This document shows, in pieces, positions 8,530-64,000 of a stretch of 64,000 bases of DNA (positions are counted from its first letter, which is position 1; every line of letters starts with the position of its first letter). Source of the stretch: a virus. Both the position numbers and the translations under genes were made by a program. Where the stretch lies: IMG/VR virus record IMGVR_UViG_3300031555_005516; one strand, 5' to 3'. The notes under the pieces are model-generated. The model did no database searches, was not told where the DNA came from, and worked only from the letters and a program-made list of their open reading frames with translations.

Positions 8530-8554
8530 TCTTTTTCAAGCCTCCATTCTTAGA

Positions 8555-9706: not shown

Positions 9707-9952
9707 GAGTCCAAAATACTGCTTTTTGAATCTACTGAATTCTTTATCGAAATCAATACCCTACTCCTTAGCAAGATTACGCGCAAATTTTTCTATATCT
9801 GCCGTACGATTATCTTTTGCCATAGTTAATAGGTTGCCAATGATTGGGTTCTGTGAAGCTTCTCCTTCAAGAATATCAATCATAAGTTGCTCAGGATTTT
9901 TACCCTGACGCATTTGCATTAATAAGTATGCAGGATCTACATTATAAGCCAT
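9707..9952 (-). CDS. Hypothetical protein (1 in-frame TAG)
   Basis: Track ORF 9761..9952 ends on TAG. Read-through runs 17 codons further to a TGA near 9704-9706. Confidence 0.35.
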
Positions 9953-9969
9953 TATATACCTCCTTATAG

Positions 9970-10428
9970 ATTAAATGTTTTTACAGTTTGTGGCTTAGGC
10001 GCGGGACCAGCTTCAGTATTCTTTTCCTAGACTAAGCTTTCTTTAAATCTGGCTAATATTTCATCAAGCTCATCTTTAGTAACGTATACTGGAGTCGAGG
10101 CGCTCTAATCGGCTCCGGCGCCGCTTAATTCAAAAATATTAAAAGCCGCAGTTCCATCCATATTTATCTGTTTGGTATAAATTTTCTTATTTCCCAGATC
10201 TGGAAAAACATAGAGCGAGCCATCTAAATCAATCTAACTAGCTCTTGCTTCATCGATTGAAACTACTGGGCGACCTTTAATATAATTTGGTTGCATCATC
10301 AAAGGCTGCGTGTAGGTTGGCTAAACTGGAGCAGTCATCTCTGCCACCTAAGAAGCTTGTCTTTGATAAGTTTGTGGCGCATAATAATACGCTGGCGCCT
10401 ACTGAGGTAGATTATTGAACATATTCAT
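9970..10428 (-). CDS. Hypothetical Gln/Tyr/Pro-rich protein with several in-frame TAGs
   Basis: RBS 'aaaggagaataaaaaATG' near 10428. Encodes 'MNMFNNLPQ*APAYYYAPQTYQRQAS*VAEMTAPV*PTYTQ...'. No TAA/TGA until about 9970. Confidence 0.35.
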
Positions 10429-10525
10429 TTTTTATTCTCCTTTCACTCTTGTTCAAGATTATATGAAAATTTAAATAGTGCTTTTATTAAATTTTGATAT
10501 AAATTTTGAAATTTAGCAGGTAATA

Positions 10526-10563
10526 AAAAAAGTTCTCATCAATATGATGAGAACTTCATTTTT
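10526..10563. terminator. Intergenic hairpin terminator
   Basis: 'gttctcatca-atatg-atgagaac' flanked by A/T runs on both sides. Confidence 0.5.
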
Positions 10564-10605
10564 TCTATTTTTATTCAAAATTTTAATATTTTATTTCTTT
10601 CAATA

Positions 10606-10645
10606 AAAAAAGAACTCATCGCTGAGTTCTTTTTATTTTTTATAT
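10606..10645 (-). terminator. Terminator downstream of the 622-aa gene
   Basis: 'agaactcatcgctgagttct' hairpin flanked by T-runs. Confidence 0.5.
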
Positions 10646-30900: not shown

Positions 30901-32885
30901 TTTTCGTTATAGTGTAGCTTACCAAGCTAGTTATAAGGACATTCAGTTCTATATCTATTTTTATATTCATTATCAATTTCTAAAGCCTCTGTCGTCCATA
31001 CGTCATATTCTTTATCAGGCTTCCCAAAATAAACCTTGCTATTTTCAACTCCTACATAAGGATAATTATTACCAATCCAATAGAAGGTTAATGAAGGAAT
31101 TCCAGTATAGTCAGCGGTTCCTAGTTTTGCTAATACCATCCTTGTTTCAGTATTTGTTTTTTCATAACAGAGATATGGATAATCAGTATTTATATCCGAT
31201 TCTAAAGTTGCTTCTTTTTTCTTATCAATATCAATCAACCCATCTTTCTCTCCATAGAGAATATACTAGTATCCATCATCCTATTCTGAAATTAACATAT
31301 CATTATATTCAATAAAACCATTAGTATAATATACTCTCCAAATACGATAAAGATCTTGTTGTTTAGTCTCTATATAAGCAATATTTCTTTCTTTACACGA
31401 ACTTATTACTATTGTATTTTTACCTTCTTCTATATTTTTAGTAACTCGCTTCCAAAGTATTGGTTTATCAATATTACTTATTTCTCCTATACGAGGTGCC
31501 CAAGGTCCATCAAAAGGTGCATGATCTTCATTATCGCTAAAAGCGAATTCCACAGTCTATTCAGGCAAGTATAATAAATCATCATTATTAATAACTATAG
31601 AAGCATATCCAATATACTTGTCACCATCTCTGTAATGGCATTTCCAAAGATTATAATTACTATCTAAGAACACTGATATCTATTGTTCAGTAGAATAGGA
31701 TGTGTCTTTTTGACCATAAACATCTATGTGTTCCCATTTATATTGACACTCTTTTTCATTTTCATTCATTGCAATAAGAACTTTTTCATAAGAGTCTACT
31801 GTTTGCTATGAGATATATAAACCAGAATAAGAAGGGGTTAAATTCTTTAAAATAGTATTAGCTTCAAAAATCATTTCTCCATAAGTAATTTCTACCTTAT
31901 ATTTCATTGGAGAATAATATATATCTTCTGAAGTAAGCTATACAATAGGTCTCTACCAGCGCGCCGTTTCCAATTTTTTCCAGCCGCTCTCTTCCCAAGG
32001 ATCCTCAATATACCACTAAAAACCACATAAATCAGGATCTATAAAAGTGGCGCCCTACATCATTCTTGCCTCAATCGTAATCTGCTCTACTTTATCGTGA
32101 AGAGTATCTCCTTCATATCCATGGATAACCGCCTACATACGATTGGCACTTTCGTTTTCTTTTATAATATTAAAGGTTATATTTTTAATTTTTAATACTT
32201 CTGAATTAGATAATTCATTTATTTTTTCCAAATAAATAGATTCAATAGTATCAAATTCATAATCTTTAAAATAACTTTGATAAGATTTAAAATCAAAGCT
32301 ATTTTGAGTAATTTCTATTTTTACAGCAGATTTAACAAGCTATCCTTTGTAACTTAATTCAAAAACTAAATCTATACTTCCAGAACTTAGTTCAGCTAAA
32401 ACTTCTGCGCCAATAGAAAACATCATAGACTCTTTAAGATGCTTTTCTAATAAAGTCTCATTCACTTTCAAAAGGTTATTAGACTCGCCTTTTTCATAAA
32501 GTATTGTTTTAGAATCAGAAAGAGTATATTCAACAATATCATCCTCTTCATTATCCTCTACAATAGAAGAGCCTAAAGAGGTATATAAAGAGCTCTCTTT
32601 TAAAGTGGTTAAATCACTAACTGAGGTGCGCCCAACAATCACTTTAAGTGACTCATCTTCAACATTGGTGGTAAGTATCTTAACTTTCTCATCTTTACCA
32701 TATTCTCCAGTCGGCGCCTAAGCTTCAAATATAGTATCTTGATAGTTTATCTTATAAATACGCTATTCTGGGTCAATGCATCCAATGACAGTTCCTATTA
32801 TGGTGCGCGTATAGTCCGTTTGGCGCAATTTACTATCAATTTGAATATCAACCGCTGAAAATAAATTTTCAACTATATTACTCAT
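27936..32885 (-). CDS. Giant tail/host-interaction protein (~1649 aa), heavily TAG-recoded
   Basis: ATG at 32883-32885 with RBS 'aaaaggagagataatATG'. Eight track fragments (32340..32642 down to 28464..29009) all lie in one frame. I translated 32643-32885 and 27936-28464 and found only TAG interruptions. Contains a collagen-like 'DGLPGAPGAPGEPGKA' and ends in a coiled coil '...KQVSELETQNSKLEERIAALEKIIINSN', then TAA near 27936. Confidence 0.5.
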
Positions 32886-32907
32886 ATTATCTCTCCTTTT
32901 CTCTCTT

Positions 32908-32939: not shown

Positions 32940-35900
32940 TTAAAATTTATCATCCTAATGCACATACTAAGTAGCTAGATTAATAAGGTCATTAAACGCC
33001 TCTTTAATCTCATCTTTGTCTGTCGCATTCGGGAACTCTGCTTGAATTGTAACATTTTGCTCAATTGGTTGAGAAGCTAATTGCTATAAGATAGAATTTT
33101 GTGAATTGCTAAATGGCATTCCAAAGCGGCCGATTTGCGCCATCATTGAAAGGTTAAGCTCACGAAGAATTGAAAGTGCGTCTAAGAAATTCTCAGTATC
33201 TTTTTTATTAAGAACCAATTCCTTTTCATGAAGCATTGCCATACGACCATCTGTGCCCCATTCACCAGTGTATCCACCAGTATCATATTTTTCTAGACCA
33301 TCAAATAATCCAGAATTTAATACTGCCCAATGGCCGTTCTCTGAATTCTTATTCTCATTTTTTAAAAATTCAATTGGAAGATAAAAAATTTCTCCATCTT
33401 TATCTCGCACTTGCACATATCCCCAACCTTCTGCATCTGTCCATATATCTGAACTTATAACCGTATATTTAGTGTTCTTCATATCTTTACCAGTATGATC
33501 AGAAACAGTAATAATATCTAATTCACCAGAACTATTATAGGTATGAATATTTCCTGTTCTCCAGCTTGCTACTCTATTTCCCTCTTCATCGAATCGGCTT
33601 CTTTCTGAATACAAATAAACTTCTTGATTAAATAAACTAGCAACCTCACTACTTGTTTTATTAGTTTTTCGTAGTCCACCAGTTCTAGTATTGTCAGGAC
33701 CAGGTCCAGAAATCTCTTCTTCCTCTTCTTTATTGCTTAATTTTCTTGCGTTTGCAATTGCAATATACATATCCCTAACTCGCTCAAGAGAAGCTTTAAG
33801 GATATCATATTGTCCAGCAAGAATAGATACCTCTGAATATTCAGTCTAATATTGTTTAATAACCGCATCCTATTTTTCTGATAATGTCTAATAAGAGCCG
33901 ATTAATCCAGAACTTGGATCAGCAGAACCAATTACAGTGGCCAATTCTTCTGCTCCAGTTTTCTATTTATCTAAATATTTATTAGAAATAGTAAGCATTG
34001 TATCCATTAAACTTTGATAACTATTATCAATACCATTTTTTGCTACCTCATTAATAATAGCATCGATATCTTTAGTCATCTAAAGAACAGTTCCTTGGGT
34101 CAGCTCAGAAAGATCTTTACCAAAAGTTGAAGCCGCTAACTCAGCAGATTCAAAAACATTGGTTCTAATTCTTATGCTTCTCTCTGCTAAATTCTAAATT
34201 TCTTTTTTACGCTTCTCAATCAATGCTAATTCTTCTGTGGTGTAAATACCATCTTCTCCGAATTTGCGAATTACATCCGCTAAATCCTACATTGCGCCCT
34301 AAAATTCATCAATAGAAGAAGTGTATTCATCTAGTTCCATATTATATAAAGCATCTTGAGCTTCTGTTAGTTTATTCTAAGCTTCAACAATTGCCGCCTA
34401 ATCAGCAACATATTGATAACTATAAGAGCCATCTGCGCCCCTCATTAAGCGCATTTGAGTTTTATTCTCTTGAGCTTCACGAAGCGCAATTTCGGCCTAA
34501 AGGATATCAAGCTTCTTTTGTGCATGTTGCACATCATACTCACTTAATTTCTCAATTTCTTCAAGTTGCGCCAATTCTTCTCTCTTAAGTTTATTAATCT
34601 GCTCTTGTGCACGAAGTGAAGTAGCTTCATTAGCCGCAGTATCAAATTGAACAGCAAGTTTATCTTTTTCGAACAAGCTCTATACAGAATCATAGTATTT
34701 ATCCATTTGAGATTTAGTCCAATCCCATTCACTGGTAAATAGCTCTGTATCTAAACTACCATAAACACTCTTATTAAAATTCTTTATAGCAATCTCTGTA
34801 TCATTCAGATATTTATCACGGCGCGCTTCCATTACCGAATACATCGCTTCTGCGCTTGCCTGTCCTGCTGCAGTATATTCTTCAATAATAGCTTCGCGTT
34901 CTTCGTCACTCATTGTAGTATCGTTAATTCTGCTATAGTTTGAAGCAGCTGCTGCAAATCTCTATTGAGTGCTTTCTTGAATAGCTAATGCATTATCAAG
35001 AGAAGAACTATAATAAGAATTTAACATCTCATACGCATCTTCGCCATAAATAAGCTCTATCATGCTTCTTTGAGTATCTAAAAGACCATTAATTTCTTCA
35101 AGATAAGAAATTTGTTTTTCATATCCCTCAGAAATTTTATTTAAAGCTGCAAGTCTCTATTGATCAATAGATTCTTCAATCTACTAAATCTCTTTTAACT
35201 TTTCTCCGTATTGAGAAGTTAATTCTTTTCTTTTCTCAAGCTTTGCTTCTGCAGAAATGTTTAAACTATCAATTTCTTTAAGAGCATCTTCAATAGTTGT
35301 AAGATCACTAATTGCGGTTTGATAATCTGTAATATAAGATTTAGTTATTTCTGAAAAATCTTCTTCATCAATAAATACTTCTCGTTTTAGTGCCTCAAAC
35401 TCTCTTTTTAATTCACCTTCATCTAAAGTAAATTCAATTTTATGTTCAAAACTAACAAGATTATTAGCTAACTCTTGAGCTTTCTTTTCATCTATAGCAT
35501 ACTTTGTTTTTCCAGAAGTAACTGGCTCCAAAATAGTTTCTAGATTACCAATCGCTGCAAGGTATAACTTATTAAGATTTTCATCAGCAGCTATTCCACG
35601 CTGAGCAAACATTTCTCTTATATTTAAAAGAGAATTCTAAGCACCTTCTTGAGTTGTTACATCTGTAATACCGAGTGCGTTCCAAAGCTCAGCTTCACTC
35701 ATAATATCAGCATTTGCATAGCCTGCTAATCGAGCAAGATCTTTTAACGCAGCCTCATAAGTAGTGTTGTTTTCTCCAGGGGTAAACGTTCTTTGCCTAT
35801 TGAGTTCTAGCTACTCAATCTTAGCTTGACGTTCAAGAAGCTTTATCTATTGTTGAATAACCTTATTCTATTCCTCAATATAATCTAGTCTATCTTGTCC

Positions 35901-38900
35901 ATACAAGGAATCTGCCACAGATGATAAGTGTGATAGTTTACTATCTAAATTAGAAATTAAATTAGAGATTTGATCCATCTCAGTTTTGAAGTTTTCAAGC
36001 GCCTTAGTTTCGAGTTTTACTCCTAATGAAATTTGTAATTCTTTTACCGTATCTTTAAAGGCTTTTTCATCAAACTCGTCTCCTAAAACTGTTGAAGCTA
36101 GTCCTTGAGCTTCTGCTACTCGTTCATCAAACTCTTCTTGAGAATCTGCGCTTCTAATCCACTGATCAATATATTCGTTTAATTTTTCAGTATCTGGTTT
36201 AACATCACTTGATTCAAGGTCTTTTTTAACATCAGCAACAAAAGCGCAATCTCCACCATCTTCTGGCACTTTTAATGATTCCGACTCTGGGGGAAGTCCG
36301 TCTAATTCTTGTGAATATTTGGTATAAAGCTCACTATTTAACGCGCCAATAGCAGATAACTAATATAACCATTGAGCAATATCAGATTTTTTTACATATT
36401 TATTATCGACTCCAAGAGCTTCATTTCGTTCTTTGGCTGCTTGATTAGCGATTGCGTTAGTAAGCTGTGCATAGTTAGCTTCAACATTATTTGCATAATA
36501 TCCTCCAGATGATGTCGTATTTTTAAACCATTTTTTTATTTCTTCTTCTGTAAATTCCTATTGTAATTCATCATAAGTAAATGATGTTGAATCTCCAGCG
36601 GGGTCTAAATCAATGATAAAATTCTTTCCGCCAACCTATTCCGTCATATCATTCCAAGCATCACCATTATCTCGCCAGTTATCGCCATATGTTTTAGTAT
36701 AAACAAAATCTATTACTTTATTTAATCCTTTATATTCATCAAGAGTAAGTGCTCCCTATAACACCGCATGAGTTTGTGATTCAGAAAAACCTTCAGTTTT
36801 ATTAAGATCTTTTCCTGTTAAACTAGCATTTTCATATCCTTTTACCTTAATTATTTCATCAAGCGTTTTAATTTTAGAAGCAGAAATTCCATCGTCGGAA
36901 TCAGGTATCGTATTAAAAACAAAATCATTTAAAATTTTATCATACTCTTCGTCAAAAGTCCTAATAGACTCAATTTCAGTCTTAATAGCTGCTTCTATTT
37001 TTCTTTCTTCCAAGTCATCAATAGTCTTAGCAAAATCAGTAGAGGCAGTTATCAATCTATAAGTGCCATCTTCCATTTGAGTAAAATACTTAGAGATAGC
37101 TGTTCCATACATCTCAATAAGATGCTAATAATTATCCATATCTAACGATGCTTGCTCTTCATTTAATGACTCAAGAATGCTTGCAGTTTCTTTCCACGCT
37201 TCCTTGGAAATCACCATCTAATCATTAGCACGAGATAAAGCATACGCAATCGCAAAACCTTCTCCACTAGTATAATCTAAAACTTTACCAACTTTTTCCA
37301 TTTCTGCAGAAAAGTCTGCAAGTAAAGTCTCTGATTCCCAGTTCATATTAGTAAGCACAGATTCTGCATCTGCATCAGTCATCTTACTAAATATAGACTC
37401 TGCTGCTTTAGCTGCTTGTTTTCCACCGAATAATTCGATTTTAGTTAATGCTTTACCAAAAGCTCTAATCTAAGAGGCACTAAAATTATTCCAAATGTTA
37501 GACCATTCGCCATTATCATTGAAAATCTTATTAATAGCATCATAAGTGCTTTCACCCCAGTTTTCTACTGTGGCAATATTTTCCTAATATATTTTAGCTT
37601 CCTCAATAGTTTTTCCAAGCGCTTTTTTTGCCTCACTTGATAAATTTAATTCATCAGCCCTTTCCCATATCTTTTGTAGTTCATCAATAGTGGCATTATT
37701 AAACTCTTCAATATTTTCAGCTAAAATTTCTTTATTAGAAGCCAAAAGTGATTTTAAAATATCTGTTCCTTCTAAAGAAATACCTTTTACAATTGCGTTA
37801 AGCTATTTCTTGTATTCTAATGCATTTACTTCACTAGAGGCAGTATTTTTTACTTCTGTGGTGGCCTATTGGCGAGCTATTGTTTCATAGCTCATTGATA
37901 CCCATTCGCCATTAGCGTTTTTATATTTAAAATTAGCTCCGCCTGTTTCTTTAATATCGTCCTTGGTTAAAGTAATTCCCTAAGATTCTGCCCACTAGAT
38001 AATGAGATCTTTATTATTCCCCTTCTTTTTCATTATCTATTCGGCGCGTTTACTTATCGCCTCTTCTTCTGCAGCATAATCGGTAGCTGATGCAGTCATA
38101 CCTCCCATTGCAGCCGCATCTTCTACAGAATATCCTTGAGACAAATATCTTTGACGATAAAACTCAGTATCTTGCATGAGCTTTAACTCATTTGCTTTTC
38201 TTATCTCCTAAGCTAAAGCATTTATTTCACTGGTATTACTCAATAAGGCTCTTTCTGCATTTGTTAACTCTTCAACATTCTTGTCTAACAATTCTGCGAG
38301 ATGCTTAGAGCTATTCTGTAAATATCCATTTAAGTCTTTCTCTTCTGACTCTGCTAATTTGTTTACTACTTTTATTAAAGCCTCTTCTGTATCATTTTCT
38401 TCTTCTTCTTCAAGGTATGTAGAAAATCCTCCTCCAAAGGCTCCAAGTCCTAATCCAGCAATAATTGGAACTGCTAATCCACCAGTTGCTAACCCAAAAA
38501 TACCACCCAGCGCAAGAGAAATTGCTACTGTTGCCCCAGTCCCCAATTCTGAAAGTTCATTCAAATAATTAAGCTCGCCTGCAAGACTTTCTTGTTTTGC
38601 AGCAATTTCTGCTGCCTATTTAGTCTCATCTGCTACTATTTTAGAGTTTTGAGCTTTATATCTTTGGTTTAACAATTCTCTTTCAACTTTTAACTAACTT
38701 TCTGAGTCTAGGGTTAATACTCCATTTTCATAATAGCCATTTTTAGCTATTTCTGGGTATGTTTCAATAAGCTACCTAGTTTCAGCATTAATATCAGCAA
38801 CCGCTTTTTCCCATTCAACACTACCTTCTGTTAAATCCTTTAAAGAATCCTTTAAAGAAGAAATATTAGAAAGTGAATTTGATAAATTGTCATAGGCTTC

Positions 38901-41900
38901 GGTTACTTTGTTTAAATTAGACTCGGCCTATTTTGCTGCTTCTGAAGCCGCTTTAAAATTGGCTTCTTGCTAATCATACAAAGAGGTAACAAGCTTAGAA
39001 GTTAAAGTTGCTCCTATATATGCTGCGGCGGCCGCCGCTAAGGCGCCTCCACCAACATTTAAAACTTTACCTGCTGCTGTTGTTGGAGCTTTTTTTGATT
39101 TAAAGAGATTAAAAGATTTTTTATTATCGTTTATATTTTGCTCAGTATCTTTAAGCAAAGCTTCTTTAGCAAGCTCTTCATTATTCTTTTTTCTTGCCGC
39201 AGCTTCCTTCAATGTGTTTGCAATTGCTTTTCTCTGTTCATCATTAAGATCGTTCTAAAGACTTTTTAGTGATTTTAACCAAAATGCCTAGTCAGTCATT
39301 TCTTCGGTAACTTCGTCCTGTGTTTTAGCATAAAACATATCAGTTATCGCAGAAGCGGCTGTAGCGCCTGTTGAAGCAGTAGTTGCAGCAGTTTTCTTAG
39401 AAATTGCAGCTGTTATCATTGTAATGGTAGGAAGAAGCATACTTAAAGAGGAGCCTACATTGGTTATTGTCTAAAATATTTTTTCCCCTAGTTCTAAATC
39501 TTGATTATTCCAAATGTCTCCTAAATTAATTAAATTTCGAAGTGCATTACCAGCCATTGCAATATTGGAAGTTAAATTAACAAACTATTTTATCTTTAAC
39601 TCTAGCTAAGCTTTTGAAAGAGCATTTCTTAAAGCCTCTCCAAGACCTTCTGCTTGAGCCTTTGCTTTTCCAACTCCATCAGTTATACCCTTATCTATAT
39701 CAGTAGATAAATTTTTAACTTCTTTTCTACCTTCTGCTATTGCTTTTTGCAGTGTCGCCTCATATTCTTCATATAAATGTGATAATTTTTCTGGATCTTT
39801 TAAGAGCTCTCCTCTTTTACTAGTGTCATCAAGTAAATTTCTAATGCTATTAGCTCTTTTAGTTAAATCTCCTCTGCTTGCTCCGCCAAGTAAATTTGCA
39901 TCTTCTAATTTTTTAGCTTCTTTATCAAGTTCTTCAAACTTCGACTTAATTTTTTCAATCTAATCTTCTTGATTACTATGAGCTTTATTTATATCTTCAA
40001 TAGACTGTTTAAACTTATTTGATGAAGCAGTTAATTCTTTAATTTTAATATCAATAGATTCTAGTTCCTCTTTACTGCCTAAAGACGACACTTCTTGTAA
40101 ATGACTGTTAATAAAACTACTATATTCATTTTGCAATTTTTGCAATATCGCCATTTCTTCAGAGTCAAGATGTTCTTTTGATAATAATTTAGAAATTCTA
40201 GCTTCATAATTTTCAAATTTTTTTCCTTCAGTCGTATCAGTGTAAAAAGTTTTTAAAGATTCTGTTTTTTCCACAAGTTTCTCAAACTATCGCTTAGAAT
40301 CTATAATGGTTCTACTATATTTTTCCTAATTAGCAATAGTGGTCTAAATACCCTTAGTAAATTCTTTATTTTTATTATCAATATCATCTATATTATTTTT
40401 AATTGAAATCAATGCGTCATTAATTTCTTTATAAGCATTTGCTGCACCACTCTTTGCAAGAGCTGCGTTTTTATCTCCGATAGAAGATTTAATGGCTTCT
40501 TCCGATAATCCTTTGGAGCTTAACTCATCTCCAAAAGTATAGACTCTGTCGAAATATTTTTCTCTTTTCGCTTTATCTTTAGCTATATTATGATTACCTT
40601 TTTCTGCTAAGCCTGCATCTGTTAAAACTCCTAATCTATCTTTAGTTTTTTCTCTATTTTCTTTTTTTCTTTCAATTTCTGAAATCGCATCTCCATACTC
40701 TGTAACACTTGCAGACATTGAATTAAATTCTTCTATTGTTATAACACCTTGTTGTCGCAAAAGCACCAAAGTGCGTCTTAAATCATTAATTTTTTTATCA
40801 GCTTCGGTCAAACTGTCTAAGGATCCTATTTCATTTATCCCCTAGAGCACCGATTTTAATGTTGTTGCTTCTTGGCCTGCATTTTTAAGGTTTGTTACAA
40901 AAGTTGTTAAGCCTGTTGCAATAGAACCTGAAAATACTCTAGTTAAAATAGGAATAAGCGACATCAATAAATTACCACCGCCGCCAATAGACTCTATAAA
41001 GCTACCAAATTTATCAACTATTTCAGTTAATACATCAAGTAAGTCATTGGCACTATCAGGATCTAACAATGCTTGATAAACGCGCTCGCCGGCAGTTCTA
41101 AGTTGCTCCATATGCGCTTCAATAGATTCCATATAAGTGTCCTATTGTTTCTGCAATGTTCCAGCTGCATTTACAGAGGTTTTCATTGCTTGCTCATACA
41201 TATTCCAGTTATCAAACAGCGCTAAAAGATTATTATATTGTCTGGTACCAGCCATAGTCTGAGAAAGAGCAATTTGTTGCTCACGAGACATTTGATTCCA
41301 TTTATTACCAATTTCCTCAATTACGTCTCCTTGATCACGAAGTTTGCCATTTGTATCAAGGACATTTATACCCATTGATTGCATCTATTTCGTATACTCA
41401 CCAAGAGTAGCTTCATCGCTTATGCCAGCTTCAATATCGCCAATACGCGCAAATACAGTTTTAAATGCAGTACCAACTGACTCAGGCGCCTGACGCGTTA
41501 CAGAAACAGCAGTTGCTAACATTGCATTTAACTGGTCAATATCTACTCCCATTGTATTAGCTGCAGAAGCAACTTTTGACATACCAGTTGAAAGTTCTTC
41601 AAGGTCGGCCGCCGTAGTTGCAGCAACGGCCGCAAGTTTATCTACATATAACTCAGCTTCTTGCGCCTATACCTTGTAACCATTCCAAACGGCAGTTAAC
41701 TATTCAGATACAACATCTGCAGACTAACCCGTTACGTTTGCCGCCTTTAATGTCGTTTCGGTTCTAGATTTTACCTATGCATCATCAAGACCCTATTGAT
41801 AGTAAATAAGAGAAGCATCCGTATAATCTCTAGTGCTTTTACCTAACTCTTTTGCGGCTTTATTTGCCTAGCGCGCAAACTATGCCATCGAATCCGCGCT

Positions 41901-42443
41901 TTTATCGGTTACTATCATTATATTATTTAATGATTCATCAAGCTACTTTGTATAGCTCCAAGCTTTTTGAACAGAACCTGTTACAGTATTAATTGCATTT
42001 GATGCAATACTCCATTTTACAGTGTTCATTAAGGTGGTGCCCATTGCCTTAAGTAAATCATGAGATTCTCTTAAAGGTAATTTCGTTGAAGAAATTGCAG
42101 TAGCTAAATTTCTAAACGCTATTGTACCTTCAGCGCCAGCCTCTGCCATTTTTGCTTTTACCTAAGATAAAGTTCCTACATTTTCATTTAATTTCTTTTT
42201 AAAAGTATCAATATTATAGGTGTTTAATGCAGGGTTAAAACTTTGCTAAAGAGCAGCTTCTACTTGGCCAGCCATTTCTTTAATTTCACGTAATTTAGCC
42301 TATGCTTTCCCTTTAGAATCTACATTTACTAAATCTCTAGTTTGCATATTCTATAAACTTGCTAAAGAAGCCTTAAGCTAATTTAAACCAGACTAATCTA
42401 CATTAAAACCAATGCCAAAAGTAATTCTTCCCTAATTAGCCAT
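32940..42443 (-). CDS. Tail tape measure protein (~3167 aa), heavily TAG-recoded
   Basis: ATG at 42441-42443 with RBS 'caaggaggaatatttaaATG'. Fourteen track fragments from 41943..42149 down to 33084..33770 share a frame. I translated 33771-34200 and 32940-33084: 9 in-frame TAGs, no TAA/TGA, continuous sense. The TP901-type TMP core is recognisable ('MGVDIDQLNAMLATAVSVTRQAPESVGTAFKTVFARIGD', 'INVLDTNGKLRDQGDVIEEIGNKWNQMSREQQIALSQTMAGTRQYNNLLALF'), as are Gly-zipper TM segments and long coiled coils. TAA at 32940-32942. Confidence 0.75.
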
Positions 42444-57682: not shown

Positions 57683-57769
57683 TCAATTTTATTCTCCTTT
57701 CTAATTAAATAATTTATTCTATAGAGAATTAAAAATATTATTATAATAATTTTTATAATATGTTTAAAT

Positions 57770-58956
57770 TATTTTTTATTCTTTGCATTACGACATTTTT
57801 TACACATACTATACCATCCATCTTTAGAACTGCTATTTTTAGAATAGAAATAAGTATGAGCGGGTTTAGTTACCCCACAACAAGAACATTTTTTCCAACG
57901 GGCGCCTTTATGTGACTAATAGTATTTTATAACATAATCGATTTGCGCCTGTTGTGCTATTAATTTAGGTATTTTATTGCGCCATAGGTTTGAAATATAT
58001 TCTACGGTGTAGGTTTTATTATATGTTTTTAATAAATATTTTTGTATATCAATATTCTGAATCCCATCAAACTTCATATTGACAATATCGCGAAATATAG
58101 GTTCATTGTTAAGCGCCTTGTCCAATAGCTCATCAAAATCCAGCATAAGAAAATAAAAATCGCTAGAAAATTTATCTTTAACAGCAAGTTTTAATCCATT
58201 ATAATTGCACATAATTGCAGAAATATGCTTAGGATCAAAAAAAGATATTACACCTTTACTTTGTGGAATTCTATTTTCATCTAACCAATATTCTACGTGC
58301 AAATCAATTTTATTTACTCCTTTGGCGCAGGGTGCCGCAACCACAGGCTGGCGCACCGAACTTCGTAATATATATTGATCTTTACGCATTTCAATTAATT
58401 GTTTTTTTAACAGATATTTTCTCTTGCCACGGGCGCTTTTACATGCCGCCTCTACTTTTTCAATCTCTTCGCGCAGCTCTTTTAATCCAGGAATTTCTTC
58501 AATATCCCGCTCTGAAATAGGATCTTTTAATTGAAAAAACATATTTTTATTATCAGTGATTAAATTATAAATACCATCTTCACCATTTTCAAGTTTTTCT
58601 GCTAATCCTTCGTATGAGGTTTCGCGCTTATTAATGGTTATAAGGCGGTTTGTAGTAAGGTATTGGCGCCCCTTCTTTTCTTCTTTTGTAATGCCGCCCA
58701 TTATATAATCGCCTAATATTTCTAAATAACGATTTGTAAGATTCTGCGCCGGAGTTTGCTCTACGATCTTATTAACAAGACCGGCGCGCTCTTCGCAAGT
58801 TTTTAAAGTATAGTCTAAATGCAGAGTTTGTTCAATATCCTCTGCCGCAATCTAGTCTTCAATTATATCTGCCTCTTGGTTAGGAGCCGAGTCTTCGTCT
58901 TCTATGTCCAAAAGGTCTTGAGTATTATCGTAATCCAAGTTATTGGCTCCTTTCAT
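57770..58956 (-). CDS. First gene of the leftward operon: acidic N-terminus and C-terminal Cys4 zinc ribbon (putative regulator), TAG-recoded
   Basis: ATG at 58954-58956 ('ATGAAAGGAGCC'). Contains fragment 57916..58701, which reads through a TAG into '...SHKGARWKKCSCCGVTKPAHTYFYSKNSSSKDGWYSMCKKCRNAKNKK'. At least 2 in-frame TAGs. Confidence 0.3.
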
Positions 58957-58968
58957 CTATCTTTAAAT

Positions 58969-59070: not shown

Positions 59071-59382
59071 ATGTATAGTATTTGGAAATATAATGTTGAG
59101 CCTAATATTATTAATCAGGAATATTATTTGCCAGAGGGCGCGCAGATTGTTAGCTTTGGATTGGATCCTGCAGATAATATGTGTTTTTGGGCAAGAGTAA
59201 ACACTAATGCGCCAAAGGTCGCGCGCATGGTTGCTTGTGTAGGAACAGGGTGGCCGCTTGATAACGTGTATAGTAAAAGCAATGGGCGCCAAGTGGAGTT
59301 TATAGGAAGTTTAACACATGGGCCTTATGTTTGGCATCTATTTGATTTGGGAGAGTGCGTAAACGATCGAATTGGCGGTTAA
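59071..59382 (+). CDS. Early hypothetical protein (103 aa)
   Basis: Intact ORF with RBS, followed by a terminator at 59426-59451. Confidence 0.45.
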   Translation: MYSIWKYNVEPNIINQEYYLPEGAQIVSFGLDPADNMCFWARVNTNAPKVARMVACVGTGWPLDNVYSKSNGRQVEFIGSLTHGPYVWHLFDLGECVNDRIGG

Positions 59383-59425
59383 TATACGCATGGGTAAAAA
59401 ATAGAGTGAATATGAGAAAAGAGAA

Positions 59426-59451
59426 AGAGGGATTTAAAATCCCTCTTTTTT
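59426..59451 (+). terminator. Rho-independent terminator
   Basis: 'agaggg-atttaaaat-ccctct' plus a T-run. Confidence 0.6.
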
Positions 59452-59665
59452 GATGAAATGGGGATGATTTTCGTTTTTTAGAATAAAAAGAATTTTCTAG
59501 GAGAGAGTTTTCGTGAGCAAAGGGGTATTGGCAATTTCTGGAAAATTTATCCTGAAAGCCTCCCATTTTTTACCATTTCCAAATGTTACCAATATCTCTG
59601 TGTAGTCTTGGCAAAACGCACAAAAAAATACCTAAAAAAATTTTAAACTTTGTGCATTTTACCTC

Positions 59666-59693
59666 TTGCAATTATTTTTAAAAGTGGTATAAT
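59666..59693 (+). promoter_or_regulatory. Early promoter
   Basis: 'TTGCAAttatttttaaaagtgGTATAAT' (extended -10). Confidence 0.5.
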
Positions 59694-59751
59694 ATTTACA
59701 GAGCTTGAGAGAGTCAAGCAAAAAACAAAAAAAGAAAAGAGAGGTAAAAAA

Positions 59752-59901
59752 ATGATGAACACAAACAACAATCTTTTAACTTTCAGAATTGCAAACAAGT
59801 ACAATGGAACAGTAAAACACATTAAAGGTATTAATGTATGGGAAGCAATGAAAAACAATGGTTGCGACTGTAAAGAATGGATATTGGTTGCAATAAATTA
59901 A
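59752..59901 (+). CDS. Early small hypothetical protein (~49 aa)
   Basis: RBS 'agaggtaaaaaaATGATG'. Lies inside track ORF 59650..59901. Confidence 0.35.
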   Translation: MMNTNNNLLTFRIANKYNGTVKHIKGINVWEAMKNNGCDCKEWILVAIN

Positions 59902-59961
59902 CAATATCTAAAAATGGTCACTTTAACAAAAAAAAGAAAAAATAAAAAGGGGATAAAAAAA

Positions 59962-60216
59962 ATGGCTAACACAATATGCTACAAACTTAAAAAGCCCGTC
60001 GTTTATAACAAAGGCACAAGCTGGGAACAAGAACACTATACTTTTTTAGCTTGTTACGGTTCTGATAATATAGAAAACCATAACGCAAGACTCCACAAGC
60101 TAAACACCGACGAACAAGCAAGAAAAGAGTTTTGTGAGTATTACAGAATTGACGTCAATAATGTTGAATACTTTTTTAATAATGTTCAAGATGAGTTTGA
60201 TACAAGGGGGGATTAA
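59962..60216 (+). CDS. Early small hypothetical protein (~84 aa)
   Basis: RBS 'aaaaggggataaaaaaaATG'. Lies inside track ORF 59914..60216. Confidence 0.4.
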   Translation: MANTICYKLKKPVVYNKGTSWEQEHYTFLACYGSDNIENHNARLHKLNTDEQARKEFCEYYRIDVNNVEYFFNNVQDEFDTRGD

Positions 60217-60219
60217 ATA

Positions 60220-60402
60220 ATGGTAGTTATTGACAGATACATAGACAATAAAAGAGAGCTTGAGTTTGAGATAGCGTTGCAAGAGTTAGAAAACGAATTA
60301 AAGCCACATATTCCAACAGATGAGGAGCTTGATGAAATGGCGCTATACTTTGAATATAAAGCGAATATCGGTAACACTCAAAAGTTAATAGGGGCGCAAT
60401 AA
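60220..60402 (+). CDS. Early small hypothetical protein (60 aa)
   Basis: ATG 3 nt after the preceding stop ('ggattaaataATG'). A terminator follows at 60391-60409. Confidence 0.4.
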   Translation: MVVIDRYIDNKRELEFEIALQELENELKPHIPTDEELDEMALYFEYKANIGNTQKLIGAQ

Positions 60403-60433
60403 GCGCCCCGCTATATAAAAGGGGGATTTAAAA

Positions 60434-60739
60434 ATGAAAAAAACAGTAAAAATCTTTAACAATGAATATTTTTGCACTTATAACACAACAGCAGTTTTAG
60501 TATCTGAAAAATATGCGTATGGTATTTCTTATGATAATACCTTAACTGTTTACTCATATAAAAATACGTTGCTTGACCTCTTAACAAGCAATGAATATCT
60601 TACCGAGCTTATGAATGAACACGGCTATGAAATAACAAAAGACTGGAATAGGGGAGACATTATAATAATTAAAATATATATGCACTCATTCGACAAACCT
60701 GTGGAATTAAGTGTTGACGCATTTACAAATACATTTTAA
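60434..60739 (+). CDS. Early hypothetical protein (101 aa)
   Basis: RBS 'aaagggggatttaaaaATG'. Confidence 0.45.
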   Translation: MKKTVKIFNNEYFCTYNTTAVLVSEKYAYGISYDNTLTVYSYKNTLLDLLTSNEYLTELMNEHGYEITKDWNRGDIIIIKIYMHSFDKPVELSVDAFTNTF

Positions 60740-60853
60740 AAGAAGGGAGTATATAACAATGTTAGGTGAAATGTTGGGTTTTATATTGGTTATAGGCATT
60801 GCAAGTATTCCGACAATAGTAATATCCATATATCAAGAATACAAATATCATAA

Positions 60854-60871
60854 GGGGCTCAAATGAGCCCC
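60854..60871 (+). terminator. Hairpin (terminator/attenuator) overlapping the start of ORF 60863
   Basis: 'ggggctc-aaat-gagcccc'. Confidence 0.35.
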
Positions 60872-61108
60872 TACTCAAGAGGTAGGATTATGTTATATGC
60901 AAGAATAATATTATTAAGCGATAAGGGGCGCCAACCCCTTACCCGCAGAGTAGAGATACAAAGCATAGAGGATTATATTGCAAATAAGAAGTATTATCAA
61001 GAGCGCGCCATACTGTCATTATGCAAGAGTAGGGCGCTAACCCCTCGACACTTAGAGCAATACGGTTATACAAAGGTAACAGTTAAATTTGAGTATAAGG
61101 AGAATTAA
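60863..61108 (+). CDS. Early hypothetical protein (81 aa)
   Basis: Intact ORF, Arg/Lys-rich. Confidence 0.35.
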   Translation: MSPYSRGRIMLYARIILLSDKGRQPLTRRVEIQSIEDYIANKKYYQERAILSLCKSRALTPRHLEQYGYTKVTVKFEYKEN

Positions 61109-61112
61109 ACAA

Positions 61113-61409
61113 ATGAAAAGAATACATATCGAAAATGAGTTTACACAGTGGGCAGAATACCTTGCAAGATACTTTGGTGACGTCCTCGCCATATACGATA
61201 AAGAAGGGCGCAGAATGTGGGGAGACAGCGACAGTGAGCCATATATTGAGGTTAATAAATATCTGCCCCCAAGTGTATATCCTATCTATAAGGATATTGG
61301 GGAAGTGATAGCCTACTATGATATTATAGGGTTGACCGCCAAAGAGGTTGAGATACTTAAAACTATTATACCATTCATAGAGTCACAGCTTGATGACGAG
61401 GGCGCCTGA
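61113..61409 (+). CDS. Early hypothetical protein (~98 aa)
   Basis: RBS 'taaggagaattaaacaaATG'. Internal start of track ORF 61089..61409. A terminator hairpin 'gagggcgcctgagtgcgccctt' follows at about 61399-61420. Confidence 0.45.
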   Translation: MKRIHIENEFTQWAEYLARYFGDVLAIYDKEGRRMWGDSDSEPYIEVNKYLPPSVYPIYKDIGEVIAYYDIIGLTAKEVEILKTIIPFIESQLDDEGA

Positions 61410-61437
61410 GTGCGCCCTTATCCGCTTAATATTGACT

Positions 61438-61510
61438 GCGCGGCGCGTCATCCCCCGCGACGCGCCGCTAAAGCAATTTGTGAACGATTTGTAAATTATT
61501 TGTTTCCAAA
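61438..61510 (+). repeat. Conserved early-region intergenic element, copy 1 (GC hairpin with ATCCCCC loop plus GCAATTTGTGAACGATTTGTAAA box)
   Basis: 'gcggcgcgtc-atccccc-gcgacgcgccgc' then 'taaagcaatttgtgaacgatttgtaaattatttgtttccaaattgtaaat'. Homologous copies are at 62026-62100, 62763-62880 and 63567-63650. Confidence 0.5.
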
Positions 61511-61592
61511 TTGTAAATATTTTATGAACAAAACTTATCCCAATATTCATATACTGTTTACAAAAAATTCATAAAGAAATTTATAAAACCTA

Positions 61593-61621
61593 TTGACATT
61601 TAGTATCCATTGTGGTATAAT
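61593..61621 (+). promoter_or_regulatory. Strong consensus promoter driving the GC-rich non-coding transcript
   Basis: 'TTGACAtttagtatccattgtgGTATAAT': perfect -35, 17-nt spacer, extended -10 TGnTATAAT. Confidence 0.65.
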
Positions 61622-61627
61622 ATAAGT

Positions 61628-62020
61628 GTCAAAGGGAGAGCGGAGCGACAGACCTCGACAATCGCACCCAATCCACACGAGAGTAACGGCTGACCGCCCC
61701 TTGACCGACAGTTGGGATAGTCGATAACACCGTCCAGCTTGGCAACTGCAAAGTAGCCGCCCCCTATTGGTAGCGAAGGGGCGAACAACGACTACCCTAC
61801 CCCACTCCGAGGGCTTGTGTTCAATATCGGAGCGGAGCGTGGCTCTCCATAAACCACGACCAATAACCCGAGCCTACGGCATATAGTCGGGAGCGTTTTG
61901 GTAGGTAGCGTATAACCACCCTCATTCGAGCATATGACCAACCTCTTGCAGATGGCTTACCTCCTGTCCTCCTGCAAGAGGTAGACTATAAAGCGCCTTG
62001 CAGCATCAAGGCGCTTTTCC
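61628..62020 (+). ncRNA. Candidate structured non-coding RNA (~390 nt, class unidentified)
   Basis: Sharp GC jump (about 55% against 30% background). All three + frames are closed within 40 codons and there is no RBS. Long-range complementarity 'gggagagc' (61633-61640) with 'gctctcc' (61842-61848); local hairpins 'cgcccc...ggggcg' and 'cctcttgcag...ctgcaagagg'. Ends in terminator 'gcgccttg-cagcatc-aaggcgc' plus T-run (61993-62020). Confidence 0.5.
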
Positions 62021-62025
62021 TTTCG

Positions 62026-62100
62026 CCGTCGCGCCGGCGGTCGTGGCGCGACGTTTTACGCGATTTGTATAGGTTACACAAATATTTGATTGAAAGTTTG
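62026..62100 (+). repeat. Conserved early-region intergenic element, copy 2
   Basis: 'cgccgtcgcgcc-ggcggtcgt-ggcgcgacg' hairpin, then 'ttttacgcgatttgtataggttacacaaatatttgattgaaagtttgtgc'. Confidence 0.45.
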
Positions 62101-62112
62101 TGCATTCTGCCT

Positions 62113-62141
62113 ATTGACTTCTATCCCGATATGTGATATAA
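62113..62141 (+). promoter_or_regulatory. Early promoter
   Basis: 'TTGACTtctatcccgatatgtgaTATAAT' (extended -10 'tgtgatataat'). Confidence 0.55.
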
Positions 62142-62248
62142 TAATGGTACAGTAAGAGAGAGGAGATAAGGGTTGAAAAAGCACCCTCGCAATATGCACT
62201 CCTACCTTGCAAGGCTCTTTTACTGAATACATAATCAAGAGGTACACT

Positions 62249-62524
62249 ATGGACTACACCAAACTTACTCTTCATAACTGTCAGAACTTGGCGGTTCAGG
62301 AATTCGGCTTTGAGGATATTCACACTATCGCAATCGCGCAACTTGTTGACCTTGTTGCAGACGATATGCTCGACAAAGAGCGCGCAACCGCTATGGCGCA
62401 AATCATCTATGACCACGGCGCCAATAGCCTCATCTATAATGATGCGTGGGACGATGATTTCGTCGATGAAGCTGATGAGAGCGGCTTTGACCCCTATATG
62501 GGTTGCTACACGGGGGATTGCTAA
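62249..62524 (+). CDS. Early hypothetical protein (~91 aa)
   Basis: RBS 'aagaggtacactATG' inside track ORF 62207..62524. Acidic C-terminus. Confidence 0.4.
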   Translation: MDYTKLTLHNCQNLAVQEFGFEDIHTIAIAQLVDLVADDMLDKERATAMAQIIYDHGANSLIYNDAWDDDFVDEADESGFDPYMGCYTGDC

Positions 62525-62553
62525 GGCAATCCCCATAAGGAAAGGAGATACAT

Positions 62554-62730
62554 ATGACAGTAAGAGAACTTATAAAGAAACTTGAAGAAATGCCTCAAGA
62601 CGCACCTATTATGCTTGAGGTTATGAGTGGCTATGTCGGATATGTAGAGGTCAAGACTTCAACAGACAATCCTGACGTTGAAATATACGAAACATCAGAT
62701 GATGTAGTTTGTATTCAAGCGATAAACTAA
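62554..62730 (+). CDS. Early small hypothetical protein (58 aa)
   Basis: RBS 'aaaggagatacatATG'. Below the 60-aa cut-off of the ORF track. A terminator follows. Confidence 0.4.
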   Translation: MTVRELIKKLEEMPQDAPIMLEVMSGYVGYVEVKTSTDNPDVEIYETSDDVVCIQAIN

Positions 62731-62733
62731 TAT

Positions 62734-62759
62734 AGAGGGCTTTGCGCCCTCTTCTTTTC
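62734..62759 (+). terminator. Rho-independent terminator
   Basis: 'agagggc-tttgc-gccctct' plus T-run. Confidence 0.6.
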
Positions 62760-62762
62760 TTT

Positions 62763-62880
62763 GCCGGCTCGCACACAATCGCGCGCGAGCCGCTTTGCGC
62801 AATTGTGAACAGTTTGTAAACTTTTTTACACAAAATTATGAACCATTCATTTCAAATTTGTTACCCGTAAAGGCAATAGT
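62763..62880 (+). repeat. Conserved early-region intergenic element, copy 3
   Basis: 'cggctcgc-acacaatcgcgc-gcgagccg' then 'ctttgcgcaattgtgaacagtttgtaaac...ttatgaaccattcatttcaaatttgtt'. A further 'ttatgaaccttttgtaaacttgttcg' copy at 62896-62925. Confidence 0.45.
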
Positions 62881-62953
62881 TTAACACCTACTATTAAATT
62901 ATGAACCTTTTGTAAACTTGTTCGATATTTCAAAAAAACTTTTGCAAAAACAC

Positions 62954-62982
62954 TTGACAAATAGATTTATTTATGATATAAT
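62954..62982 (+). promoter_or_regulatory. Early promoter
   Basis: 'TTGACAaatagatttatttatgaTATAAT'. Confidence 0.55.
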
Positions 62983-63125
62983 ATGTATGTAATCAAGAGC
63001 AAGGCTCGGAAACGATGAACGAAAACTCGGAGAACGCACGGTTGAGATACCCGAAACCATTGAGTAGTTTAGAGCAGACAGACAACTTGCTCTTGATACA
63101 AATACATAAAAGAGAGGTAAAAACA

Positions 63126-63368
63126 ATGTTAGACACAAACAAAGCAATATGGGATATCACAGAGGTTGGCGAGTGGCTTGATAGCAACTTTGTAGACGAA
63201 GAAAGCGGAGAAGTCTTCTTTGTAGAACTCAAGAAAGAAGACGGAGAAGAAATGGAAGACTTTATAGCAAAATGTCAAGAGATTGCTGATGACAACTTTG
63301 ACAATGCAATATTTCTTGGTCTTGTAGACGGAGAAACCGCTGAGATACTTGGCTATGACACTTATTGA
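63126..63368 (+). CDS. Early small acidic hypothetical protein (~80 aa)
   Basis: RBS 'agagaggtaaaaacaATG' inside track ORF 63015..63368. Terminator 'gagagggcgcaaagccctctctc' at 63367-63389. Confidence 0.4.
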   Translation: MLDTNKAIWDITEVGEWLDSNFVDEESGEVFFVELKKEDGEEMEDFIAKCQEIADDNFDNAIFLGLVDGETAEILGYDTY

Positions 63369-63414
63369 GAGGGCGCAAAGCCCTCTCTCATAAAAAATAT
63401 AAGGAGAAGAAAAA

Positions 63415-63546
63415 ATGAAAGTCTATGTAGTATGTGAAGATTATACTTGCGCTTTTGAGGATTTGTTTACCAATAAAAAAGAGGCGGAAAAAAGAGCCAA
63501 AGAGATTGGCGGTTATGTAATTCCATATGACTTAAAGGACTGCTAA
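63415..63546 (+). CDS. Early small hypothetical protein (43 aa)
   Basis: RBS 'aaggagaagaaaaaATG'. Encodes 'MKVYVVCEDYTCAFEDLFTNKKEAEKRAKEIGGYVIPYDLKDC'. Confidence 0.35.
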   Translation: MKVYVVCEDYTCAFEDLFTNKKEAEKRAKEIGGYVIPYDLKDC

Positions 63547-63566
63547 CACAGCAGTCTTTTTTCACT

Positions 63567-63650
63567 CGCCGTGCCGCAATCCCCCGCCGCGGCACGTTTT
63601 ATGCAATCTGCACAAATCATCGTCTTTTTTTCTTCAAAACTTTGTTACAT
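63567..63650 (+). repeat. Conserved early-region intergenic element, copy 4
   Basis: 'cgtgccgc-aatccccc-gccgcggcacg' then 'ttttatgcaatctgcacaaatcatcg...'. Confidence 0.45.
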
Positions 63651-63657
63651 TTGACTA

Positions 63658-63686
63658 TTGACAAAATCCCGCATTTGTGATATAAT
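63658..63686 (+). promoter_or_regulatory. Early promoter
   Basis: 'TTGACAaaatcccgcatttgtgaTATAAT'. Confidence 0.55.
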
Positions 63687-63720
63687 ATAAGTGTAATAAA
63701 GGAAAGGGGTAATACATACT

Positions 63721-64000
63721 ATGATTAACATTCGTTCAATTCTCAAGCTGAAGGATAATGACGGTTTAACACTCAAGAAGGGCGCGCCTATCATATATAA
63801 GACAGGTTATCAAGTCGCAACAGAGGGTATAGAATGTCGCACAGCAAGAGAAGCAATCAATGCTGTTAAGGCATATGGCGGTAACTGCGGTGTATGGTTT
63901 AGCAATGGCATATACTACATTGATAAATCACATCGTGAGAGCACTCTCAAAAAGGCGCTTGAGGTTGGGCGCGCTTGTGAGCAAATCTCCATACTGAGAT
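63721..64000 (+). CDS. Early hypothetical protein (partial, continues beyond the window)
   Basis: RBS 'aaaggaaaggggtaatacatactATG'. Open to the window end. Confidence 0.35.
   Translation, partial: MINIRSILKLKDNDGLTLKKGAPIIYKTGYQVATEGIECRTAREAINAVKAYGGNCGVWFSNGIYYIDKSHRESTLKKALEVGRACEQISILR

Follow-up and report, generated by a model that had tools for sequence, protein, structure and literature searches.

A conserved G/C hairpin at the 5' edge of early-promoter cassettes in TAG-recoded siphoviruses, a putative back-up terminator

Why would a phage place a second, very G/C-rich hairpin between the terminator of one early transcription unit and the promoter of the next? The question is raised by a 64,000-nucleotide (nt) stretch of viral DNA (IMG/VR record IMGVR_UViG_3300031555_005516; the whole stretch is called the window here), in which four copies of such a hairpin, each followed by short repeated boxes, lie between positions 61,438 and 63,650. 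An earlier note on this DNA took the composite elements for binding sites of a phage regulator or for an RNA-level regulatory module, and not for simple terminators. Our comparative sequence analysis favors a reading in which the hairpin would be a second terminator that marks the 5' edge of a mobile early-promoter cassette and insulates it, with a probability of about 0.55.

The presence of four perfect G/C hairpins behind ordinary terminators was confirmed. Dinucleotide shuffles of positions 61001-64000 gave a mean of 0.004 perfect all-G/C hairpins, compared to 4 observed, and the four cassettes are packed into 2.3 kb. The stems are perfect Watson-Crick helices, with RNA fold z-scores of -3.6 to -4.8. 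In 4/4 copies the hairpin starts 10-20 nt past the hairpin of the ordinary terminator (T1) of the upstream unit (the spacers with copies 1 to 4 are referred to as B, C, D and E). The distance from the hairpin end to the next -35 element is 124, 60, 161 and 61 nt for copies 1-4, so that the 40-120 bp given earlier does not hold. The promoters reached in this way score 11-12 of 12 against the sigma-70 consensus and have an extended -10 element. The loops are 9, 9, 12 and 11 nt long. Two copies share the loop motif ATCCCCC, as had been noticed, at positions 2-3 nt away from those first assigned (61450-61456 and 63579-63585). Another early spacer that had been listed for a motif search (59380-59700) was found to lack a G/C hairpin at 59383-59700. 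A T7-type primase site (GGGTC or TGGTC) occurs in about half of the loops of the hairpin family described below, including one of the four window copies. An outer helix that appeared around the hairpin in folds (UCGC...GCGA, UUGC...GCAA) was rejected, as it is not kept in orthologues.

We identified the same type of hairpin in related phages, where it is restricted to the early region (read in the orientation of the early genes). The comparison drew on 80 related loci retrieved from IMG/VR by terminase, and on 4 more informative ones found via an early protein. There are 68 distinct family hairpins, 42 of which are exactly 27 nt long after outer A:T pairs are trimmed. In all 42 of these, CG is invariant at stem positions 1-2 and 6-7, as are the partners at 21-22 and 26-27, whereas stem positions 3-5 and 8-9 vary and the opposite arm changes to match. 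Loops are 7-13 nt long (up to 21 nt) and very variable, except that C16 and G17 are retained in about 80% of the 27-nt copies. Past the hairpin, T is found at +2, +3 and +4 in 29, 35 and 38 of the 42 copies; upstream positions -1 to -5 are not A-rich. A canonical terminator lies 7-30 nt upstream of 26 of the 68 hairpins, compared to 3% of random positions.

A covariance model made from the relatives (the 27-nt unit with short flanks, trained on sequences that included two of the four window copies) finds exactly 4 sites in the 64 kb of the window, strong on the + strand only (E 3e-11 to 4e-6). Copies 1 to 4 score 28.3 (E 4e-6), 45.5, 30.9 and 36.1 bits. In the 80 related loci (1.13 Mb), 86 of 86 matches share the strand of the early genes and lie upstream of terminase, and conservation of the composite element in related genomes, a prediction of the earlier note, is thus borne out. 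A search of 2.9 million viral contigs with a strict form of the pattern gave 63 matches, of which about 50 have an A/T-rich, family-like context. Given this polarity, the confinement to the early region and the rarity of the strict pattern, the hairpin element is real, polar, conserved and nearly specific to the phage group. Neither the hairpins (at E up to 5) nor any other part of the window (at gathering score) matched a family in Rfam 15, which includes CRISPR repeat families. A metagenome scan with TTGTGAACAGTTTGTAAAC returned mostly unrelated sequences (only L101/L121, L105 and perhaps L124 look related) and added no orthologues.

The hairpin also marks a boundary of homology. We compared the window with the related loci L081 and L084 pairwise across the four spacers, and in 12/12 comparisons identity is at the random level (40-55%) at -120 to -21 and rises near the hairpin to 64-95% at +21 to +60. 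This jump indicates that T1 and the last upstream gene are not homologous, and that hairpin, boxes and promoter form one conserved module. The box-bearing spacer DNA is 83-95% identical between relatives, compared to 70-76% for coding DNA; spacer D is 90-95% identical to its counterparts in both L081 and L084. The slots between hairpins B-C and C-D hold different genes in the three phages. For example, slot B-C is occupied by a 394-nt unit without an open reading frame (ORF) in the window phage and by three ORFs in L081. In L084 it contains a homologue of a 91-amino acid (aa) gene that is found one slot further on in the window and in L081. The same stems recur at non-orthologous spacers: CGTGCCGC in spacer E of the window and spacer C of L084, and CGGCTCGCG in spacer B of L084 and spacer E of L081.

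With the flanks as a guide, we aligned the spacers of the three or four closest genomes, and in these small samples the stems covary. Orthologous stems in spacer C read GTCGCGCC, GTGCCGCG and GTCACGCC, and stem positions 3-5 in spacer E are TGC, GCT and GCC, with right arms that match. Three pairs in spacer C and three in spacer E are changed on both sides (cells are paired 100% and 93%, respectively), compared to no two-sided changes in slid controls. The 27-nt core of copy 1 is identical in L081. The stem of copy 3 is replaced in L081, and is kept in L084 with one compensatory change.

The DNA between hairpin and promoter carries a second set of conserved features. The GCRATYTG-type box described earlier does have a fixed place, 5-8 nt past the hairpin (with the copy 3 version, GCAATTGTG, one base shorter). 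However, the motif alone is not enriched, with 10 matches in the window compared to 9.2 expected. In spacers C and E, GCAATYTG is the center of a 17-bp palindrome, TTRTGCA-N3-TGCAYAA, exact copies of which lie 3-13 nt past hairpins in L081, L082 and L084. Support for the palindrome is positional and comparative only, as it is not enriched in the window (21 matches at up to 3 mismatches compared to 15.9 expected). Spacers B and D instead contain direct TTGTRAAC repeats with an 11-bp period (5 units from 61476 and about 6 from 62801), and TTGTRAAC is a half-site related to the palindrome of spacers C and E. The additional repeats that had been reported in two spacers proved significant: the 19-bp composite box TTRTGAACNNTTTGTAAAC occurs in four copies at up to 1 mismatch, all in 61478-61574 and 62803-62917, compared to an expectation of 0.9 even at up to 3 mismatches. 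No good copies were found elsewhere in the window, and on this basis we rejected the box as a late promoter for a phage sigma factor. Motifs like TGTGCAAT trail the hairpins also in more distant relatives and in phage phAss-1.

The palindrome, the 11-bp phasing and the conservation of this spacer DNA beyond that of coding DNA suggest protein-binding sites, in agreement with the earlier note. A DNA-binding protein that is dimeric or forms arrays could plausibly use the boxes as operators. The helix-turn-helix or Cro-like protein suggested among the small early proteins was not found in ten early ORFs searched against Pfam and PHROGs. Two further repeats were seen. A conserved box, AAASTTTGTKNCATT, directly adjoins the -35 element of three early promoters (59645-59668, 62093-62116 and 63637-63660, + strand); it reads AAAGTTTGTGCATTCTGCC in spacer C and AAACTTTGTTACATTTGAC from 63637 in spacer E, and one of the three lies in a spacer without a G/C hairpin. 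In L104 (Ga0123355_10113258, 2711-3050) there are 14.8 tandem copies of a 23-bp unit, CAAATTTGTTTACAAATTGTTCA, which is the reverse complement of the window composite box TTGTGAAC/TTTGTAAAC; this may be a coincidence.

Each element may thus be a reusable early-promoter cassette, the 5' edge of which is a very stable G/C hairpin with a short U-tract. In the RNA of the upstream unit the hairpin would act as a second, back-up intrinsic terminator that halts RNA polymerase leaking through T1, and the boxes and the strong sigma-70 promoter would thereby be insulated from read-through. A regulator probably binds the boxes and would tune early transcription or shut it off. Being multi-copy and well conserved, the cassette could also offer homology for swaps of early-gene cassettes between related phages. 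We infer the back-up terminator from the polarity, the T-run, the stability, and the location between T1 and regulatory DNA. As in intrinsic terminators, which have stems of about 5-14 bp, there is a G/C stem (8-10 bp here) downstream of a gene and in the same orientation. To this extent the statement that the elements are not simple terminators needs revision: strict polarity, T at +4 in 38/42 copies and the absence of a mirrored A-run are terminator anatomy. However, the fixed 27 nt, the invariant CG pairs and the loops of 7-13 nt exceed what a terminator needs, and in that part the statement stands.

Several observations weigh against termination as the function of the hairpin. The window loops (9-12 nt) are longer than the usual 3-8 nt and the U-tracts are short (only 4-5 T; 4-6 nt in the family), both outside the usual terminator consensus, and a terminator consensus scan of the window did not call the four G/C hairpins. 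The TTT that had been described after each hairpin is present in three copies; copy 1 and its L084 orthologue lack a T-run, and the stem is still perfect. Termination requires neither the invariant C1, G2, C6 and G7 (42/42) nor the fixed length of 27 nt. In some relatives a consensus promoter 7-9 nt from the hairpin fires into it; its -10 element abuts the T-run of the hairpin, as expected if a terminator is placed directly before regulatory DNA. The covariation is also no proof of selection on RNA, as template-switch repair of quasi-palindromes at the DNA level could keep the arms perfect. Mismatches at the inner stem end, read on the early-gene strand, are 19 of G:T type and 18 of A:C type. 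There is no strand bias, and thus no positive sign of selection on one RNA strand; the comparison was dropped as a test for the transcribed strand, since transitions alone would yield such mismatches. No DNA-binding domain, and hence no regulator, was identified among the ten early ORFs. The terminator reading leaves four features over: CG pairs that do not vary, a length fixed at 27 nt, long loops and, in copy 1, the missing T-run.

Table 1. Features of the four cassettes in spacers B to E (positions in the window; T2, the G/C hairpin)
Feature	Positions	Strand	Details
T1, terminator-like hairpin (B)	61398-61419	+	RNA fold; ends unit 59666-61409; weak U-tract; not conserved among relatives compared
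T2, hairpin copy 1 (B)	61440-61468	+	GCGGCGCGTC-ATCCCCCGC-GACGCGCCGC; stem 10 bp; then TAAAGC, no T-run
11-bp phased boxes, five (B)	61476-61530	+	ATTTGTGAACG, ATTTGTAAATT, ATTTGTTTCCA, AATTGTAAATA, TTTTATGAACA; conserved in L081 and L084
Inverted composite box (B)	61556-61574	+	
Sigma-70 promoter (B)	61593-61621	+	TTGACA-17-TATAAT with TG; 12/12
T1 (C)	61990-62017	+	RNA fold; ends non-coding unit 61629-62022
T2, hairpin copy 2 (C)	62027-62053	+	CGTCGCGCC-GGCGGTCGT-GGCGCGACG; stem 9 bp; then TTTTAC
Degenerate palindromic box (C)	62065-62081	+	TTGTATAGGTTACACAA
Sigma-70 promoter (C)	62114-62142	+	TTGACT-17-TATAAT with TG
T1 (D)	62734-62752	+	AGAGGGCTTTGCGCCCTCT and T-run
T2, hairpin copy 3 (D)	62765-62792	+	CGGCTCGC-ACACAATCGCGC-GCGAGCCG; stem 8 bp; then CTTTGC
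Phased boxes (D)	62801-62917	+	TTGTGAAC/TTGTAAAC/TTATGAAC; composite 19-bp boxes at 62803 and 62899
Sigma-70 promoter (D)	62954-62982	+	12/12, with TG
T1 (E)	63538-63556	+	RNA fold; GACTGCT-AACAC-AGCAGTC and TTTTTT; T-run to 63562
T2, hairpin copy 4 (E)	63570-63596	+	CGTGCCGC-AATCCCCCGCC-GCGGCACG; stem 8 bp; then TTTTAT
Palindromic operator-like box (E)	63599-63615	+	TTATGCAATCTGCACAA, contains the previously described GCAATCTG; exact TTRTGCA-N3-TGCAYAA match
Sigma-70 promoter (E)	63658-63686	+	12/12

Some of these leftover features would fit an alternative in which a phage or host protein specifically recognizes the structure of the hairpin, as RNA or as extruded or single-stranded DNA, and termination is secondary. 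The protein might be a processing endonuclease, a structure-specific recombinase, or a factor for termination or antitermination. Invariant CG pairs next to positions that flip freely, the exact 27 nt of 42/68 copies, the retained loop bases C16 and G17, the near confinement of the strict pattern to the phage group, and a copy 1 that keeps its stem without a T-run would all be natural for such a structure. We nevertheless consider it rather unlikely, since no candidate protein and no Rfam family was found, the loops vary even between orthologues (GGCGGTCGT, ACCGCCCGC and AAGGGCCGC), and the strong T-run and strict polarity fit a terminator. The hairpin might instead work primarily on DNA, as a recombination hotspot or site that marks cassette boundaries, either resembling an integron attC site or arising by replication stalling and template switching at palindromes, with an incidental T-run. 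The breakpoints in 12/12 comparisons, the shuffled cassettes, the recurrence of the stems CGTGCCGC and CGGCTCGCG at non-orthologous spacers and the perfect arms without G:T pairs are all consistent with such a site. However, no recombinase was found, a symmetric DNA site leaves the polarity and the T-run unexplained, and homologous recombination inside a conserved spacer accounts for the breakpoints equally well; we regard a recombination site as quite improbable. The attC comparison itself fails, as the R''/R' core (RYYYAAC...GTTRRRY) is absent, and the arms are perfect, all G/C and start with CG, in contrast to the imperfect arms and extrahelical bases of attC. A combined version, in which the 27-nt hairpin is a structure-specific site for a dedicated phage factor and bounds mobile early-gene cassettes, so that host-takeover genes would be organized in an integron-like or factor-gated manner, coupled in some lineages to short antisense RNAs led by the hairpin, seems improbable.

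Such RNAs could also be the main product. The hairpin would then be the 5' stem-loop of a short minus-strand RNA, antisense to the 3' end of the upstream mRNA and controlling its stability. In L093, L020, L025, L030, L034, L060 and L074, an opposite-strand promoter scoring 11-12/12 ends 7-9 nt from the hairpin; the RNAs in L093 would be about 95 nt long, with a bidirectional T1 as their terminator. In the window, folding is better on the minus strand for three of the four hairpins, by 1.8-7.0 kcal/mol. Against this, the clade of the window has no such promoter (best scores are 6-7 of 12), only 11/68 family hairpins have an abutting promoter, the promoter-sense strand folds no better where the promoter is present (mean +0.8 kcal/mol), and the element keeps the orientation of the early genes rather than that of those promoters. 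Thus, an antisense role appears very improbable. Some known hairpin elements were also rejected as counterparts. Promoters of the N4 type, used by a virion RNA polymerase, have stems of 5-7 bp and 3-nt loops, compared to 8-10 bp and 9-12 nt here; in addition, context identifies the 3167-aa ORF as a tape measure protein, and the promoters of the early units are of the sigma-70 type. Mimicry of a CRISPR repeat was dismissed because nothing in Rfam matched.

Two relatives have unusual promoter arrangements around their hairpins. L093 (IMGVR_UViG_3300021387_000299, positions 1-12039) has 82 consensus promoters on both strands, 19 of them perfect, compared to 32 expected. At least six of the promoters on the minus strand point directly at a G/C hairpin with a stem of 12-15 bp, behind which lie an A-rich linker and a shared bidirectional terminator. 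This layout predicts a family of short RNAs (about 95 nt where the terminator has a U-tract) that are antisense to the 3' ends of ORF units. In L093, too, the model matches lie on the ORF strand. In phAss-1 only two weak model matches were found, both directly downstream of same-strand promoters (L191 39060-39125 and 42940-43005, or about 129.1 and 132.9 kb of the record, minus strand). These promoters read TTGACA-17-TAAAAT, and the transcript start would fall inside or at the left arm of the hairpin. Transcripts from such a promoter could escape a terminator that stops transcripts from upstream.

The closest known system is the promoter-early stem-loop (PeSL) cassette of T4-like myoviruses (Arbiol et al. 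2010, PMC2839356; Comeau et al. 2014, PMC4122927), in which a stem-loop and a sigma-70 early promoter are found at shuffling points (PMC4122927). As in PeSLs, the stem-loop lies upstream of a sigma-70-like early promoter, is repeated between small variable early ORFs and is better conserved than the genes. In both, the cassette is found at insertions, deletions and replacements between close relatives, and is kept while the flanking genes differ. However, the phage here is a TAG-recoded siphovirus of Bacillota rather than T4-like. PeSL stems are short (GN-loop-CN or A3-4G3-loop-C3T3-4), whereas the stem here belongs to an all-G/C unit of 27 nt with invariant CG pairs and a loop of 7-13 nt. The hairpin is also additional to the terminator of the upstream gene, and 60-160 nt of operator-like boxes separate it from the promoter. 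The element works like a PeSL but is no member by descent, as its stem type differs from those described. The finding is best filed as a variant of this promoter-terminator cassette design, in a phage group without prior regulatory description.

The hairpin also shares features with other arrangements. Tandem intrinsic terminators and insulators are known upstream of strong promoters in bacteria and phages. The window hairpins resemble them in having a G/C stem and U-tract after a first terminator, in the sense of the upstream gene, that would protect a downstream promoter; they differ in the long loop, the short U-tract and the one copy without a U-tract. To our knowledge, terminators do not normally keep one length or certain bases unchanged throughout a phage family. 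Host-takeover regions of SPO1-like phages and Kayvirus contain many small ORFs in units with a strong sigma-A promoter and a terminator, and the early region here is similarly an array of short units that each combine a consensus host promoter with a terminator. We know of no conserved family of second G/C hairpins in those phages. The lambda nut site (boxA and the boxB hairpin) and HK022 put lie downstream of a promoter, inside the transcript that they modify. They share with our element a hairpin and an adjoining short conserved box in phage early regions. However, the anti-terminator role that had been proposed does not fit the position: the hairpins lie upstream of promoters (by 59-161 nt) and 10-20 nt after terminators, unlike a nut/boxB antitermination site. 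They also occur in many copies, and no N-like protein was found.

The window derives from a large tailed phage, an uncultivated siphovirus of the gut that has a genome of about 135 kb, is related to phAss-1 and reads TAG as glutamine. On the minus strand from 7 to 59 kb, long ORFs are found only if TAG is a sense codon, and the summed ORF length then doubles. In-frame TAG codons number 69 in the gene for the 3167-aa tape measure protein (32940-42443, minus strand; assigned by context), 38 in an ORF at 27936-32906 (minus strand) and 7 in the terminase gene. We also assigned genes for the portal protein and the anaerobic ribonucleotide reductase (NrdD). Identity of the terminase is 43-45% to the enzymes of Enterococcus and Geobacillus siphoviruses with genomes of about 140 kb, and 42% to that of phAss-1, a phage assigned to the 'Caudoviricetes code 15 clade'. 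Clostridia are the predicted hosts of this clade (PMC10607447), and the same paper does not mention promoters, terminators or repeats for the TAG-recoded group.

Two promoters diverge at about 59.0 kb, and the early region extends to the right on the + strand. Each of its short units has a consensus sigma-70 promoter with an extended -10 element, strong Shine-Dalgarno sites, tiny ORFs and a terminator. The 12 early + strand ORFs examined have no in-frame TAG and stop at TAA or TGA. No tRNA genes were found in the 64 kb, and a suppressor tRNA must thus be encoded elsewhere in the genome. The first gene on the other side (57769-58962, minus strand) lies behind a 12/12 sigma-70 promoter (58999-58971, minus strand) and its product matches PHROG 5767, 'sigma factor' (E 1e-38). 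The gene has 3 in-frame TAG codons and encodes a zinc-ribbon/HNH-like C-terminal tail. A phage sigma factor that needs TAG suppression for its translation could time the late genes.

Three early transcripts may be structured. The unit without an ORF at 61629-62022 (+ strand) runs from promoter to terminator and has a G+C content of 55%, compared to about 33% for the genome, with a fold z-score of -3.05. It has no match in Rfam and no counterpart in L081, L084 or any fetched locus, and is a candidate phage non-coding RNA. The leaders at 62150-62245 and 62990-63110 (both + strand) have long-range stems (CAGTAAGAGAG...CTCTTTTACTG and ATCAAGAGCAAG...CTTGCTCTTGAT, respectively) right at the predicted transcript start. 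A 117-aa ORF from 63015 is 80% identical to an L084 ORF over its full length, and the 62990-63110 stretch may be coding rather than a structured leader. The NrdD gene (1166-4252, + strand; Pfam E 5e-86) carries an intein-like insert at residues ~177-504 with a LAGLIDADG-like GMIDGDGTI motif; its intein splicing domain scores under the Pfam threshold.

This is a first regulatory map of the early region for the poorly understood but abundant TAG-recoding phages of gut and rumen. It carries the PeSL idea, in which terminator-promoter cassettes are points where accessory genes are shuffled, beyond T4-like phages and their Gram-negative hosts to the large siphoviruses that infect Bacillota. In metagenomic phage contigs, early regions and the boundaries of cassettes can be located with the covariance model and the strict pattern. 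The invariance of the CG pairs is a testable hint that the hairpin may be read by something more specific than termination.

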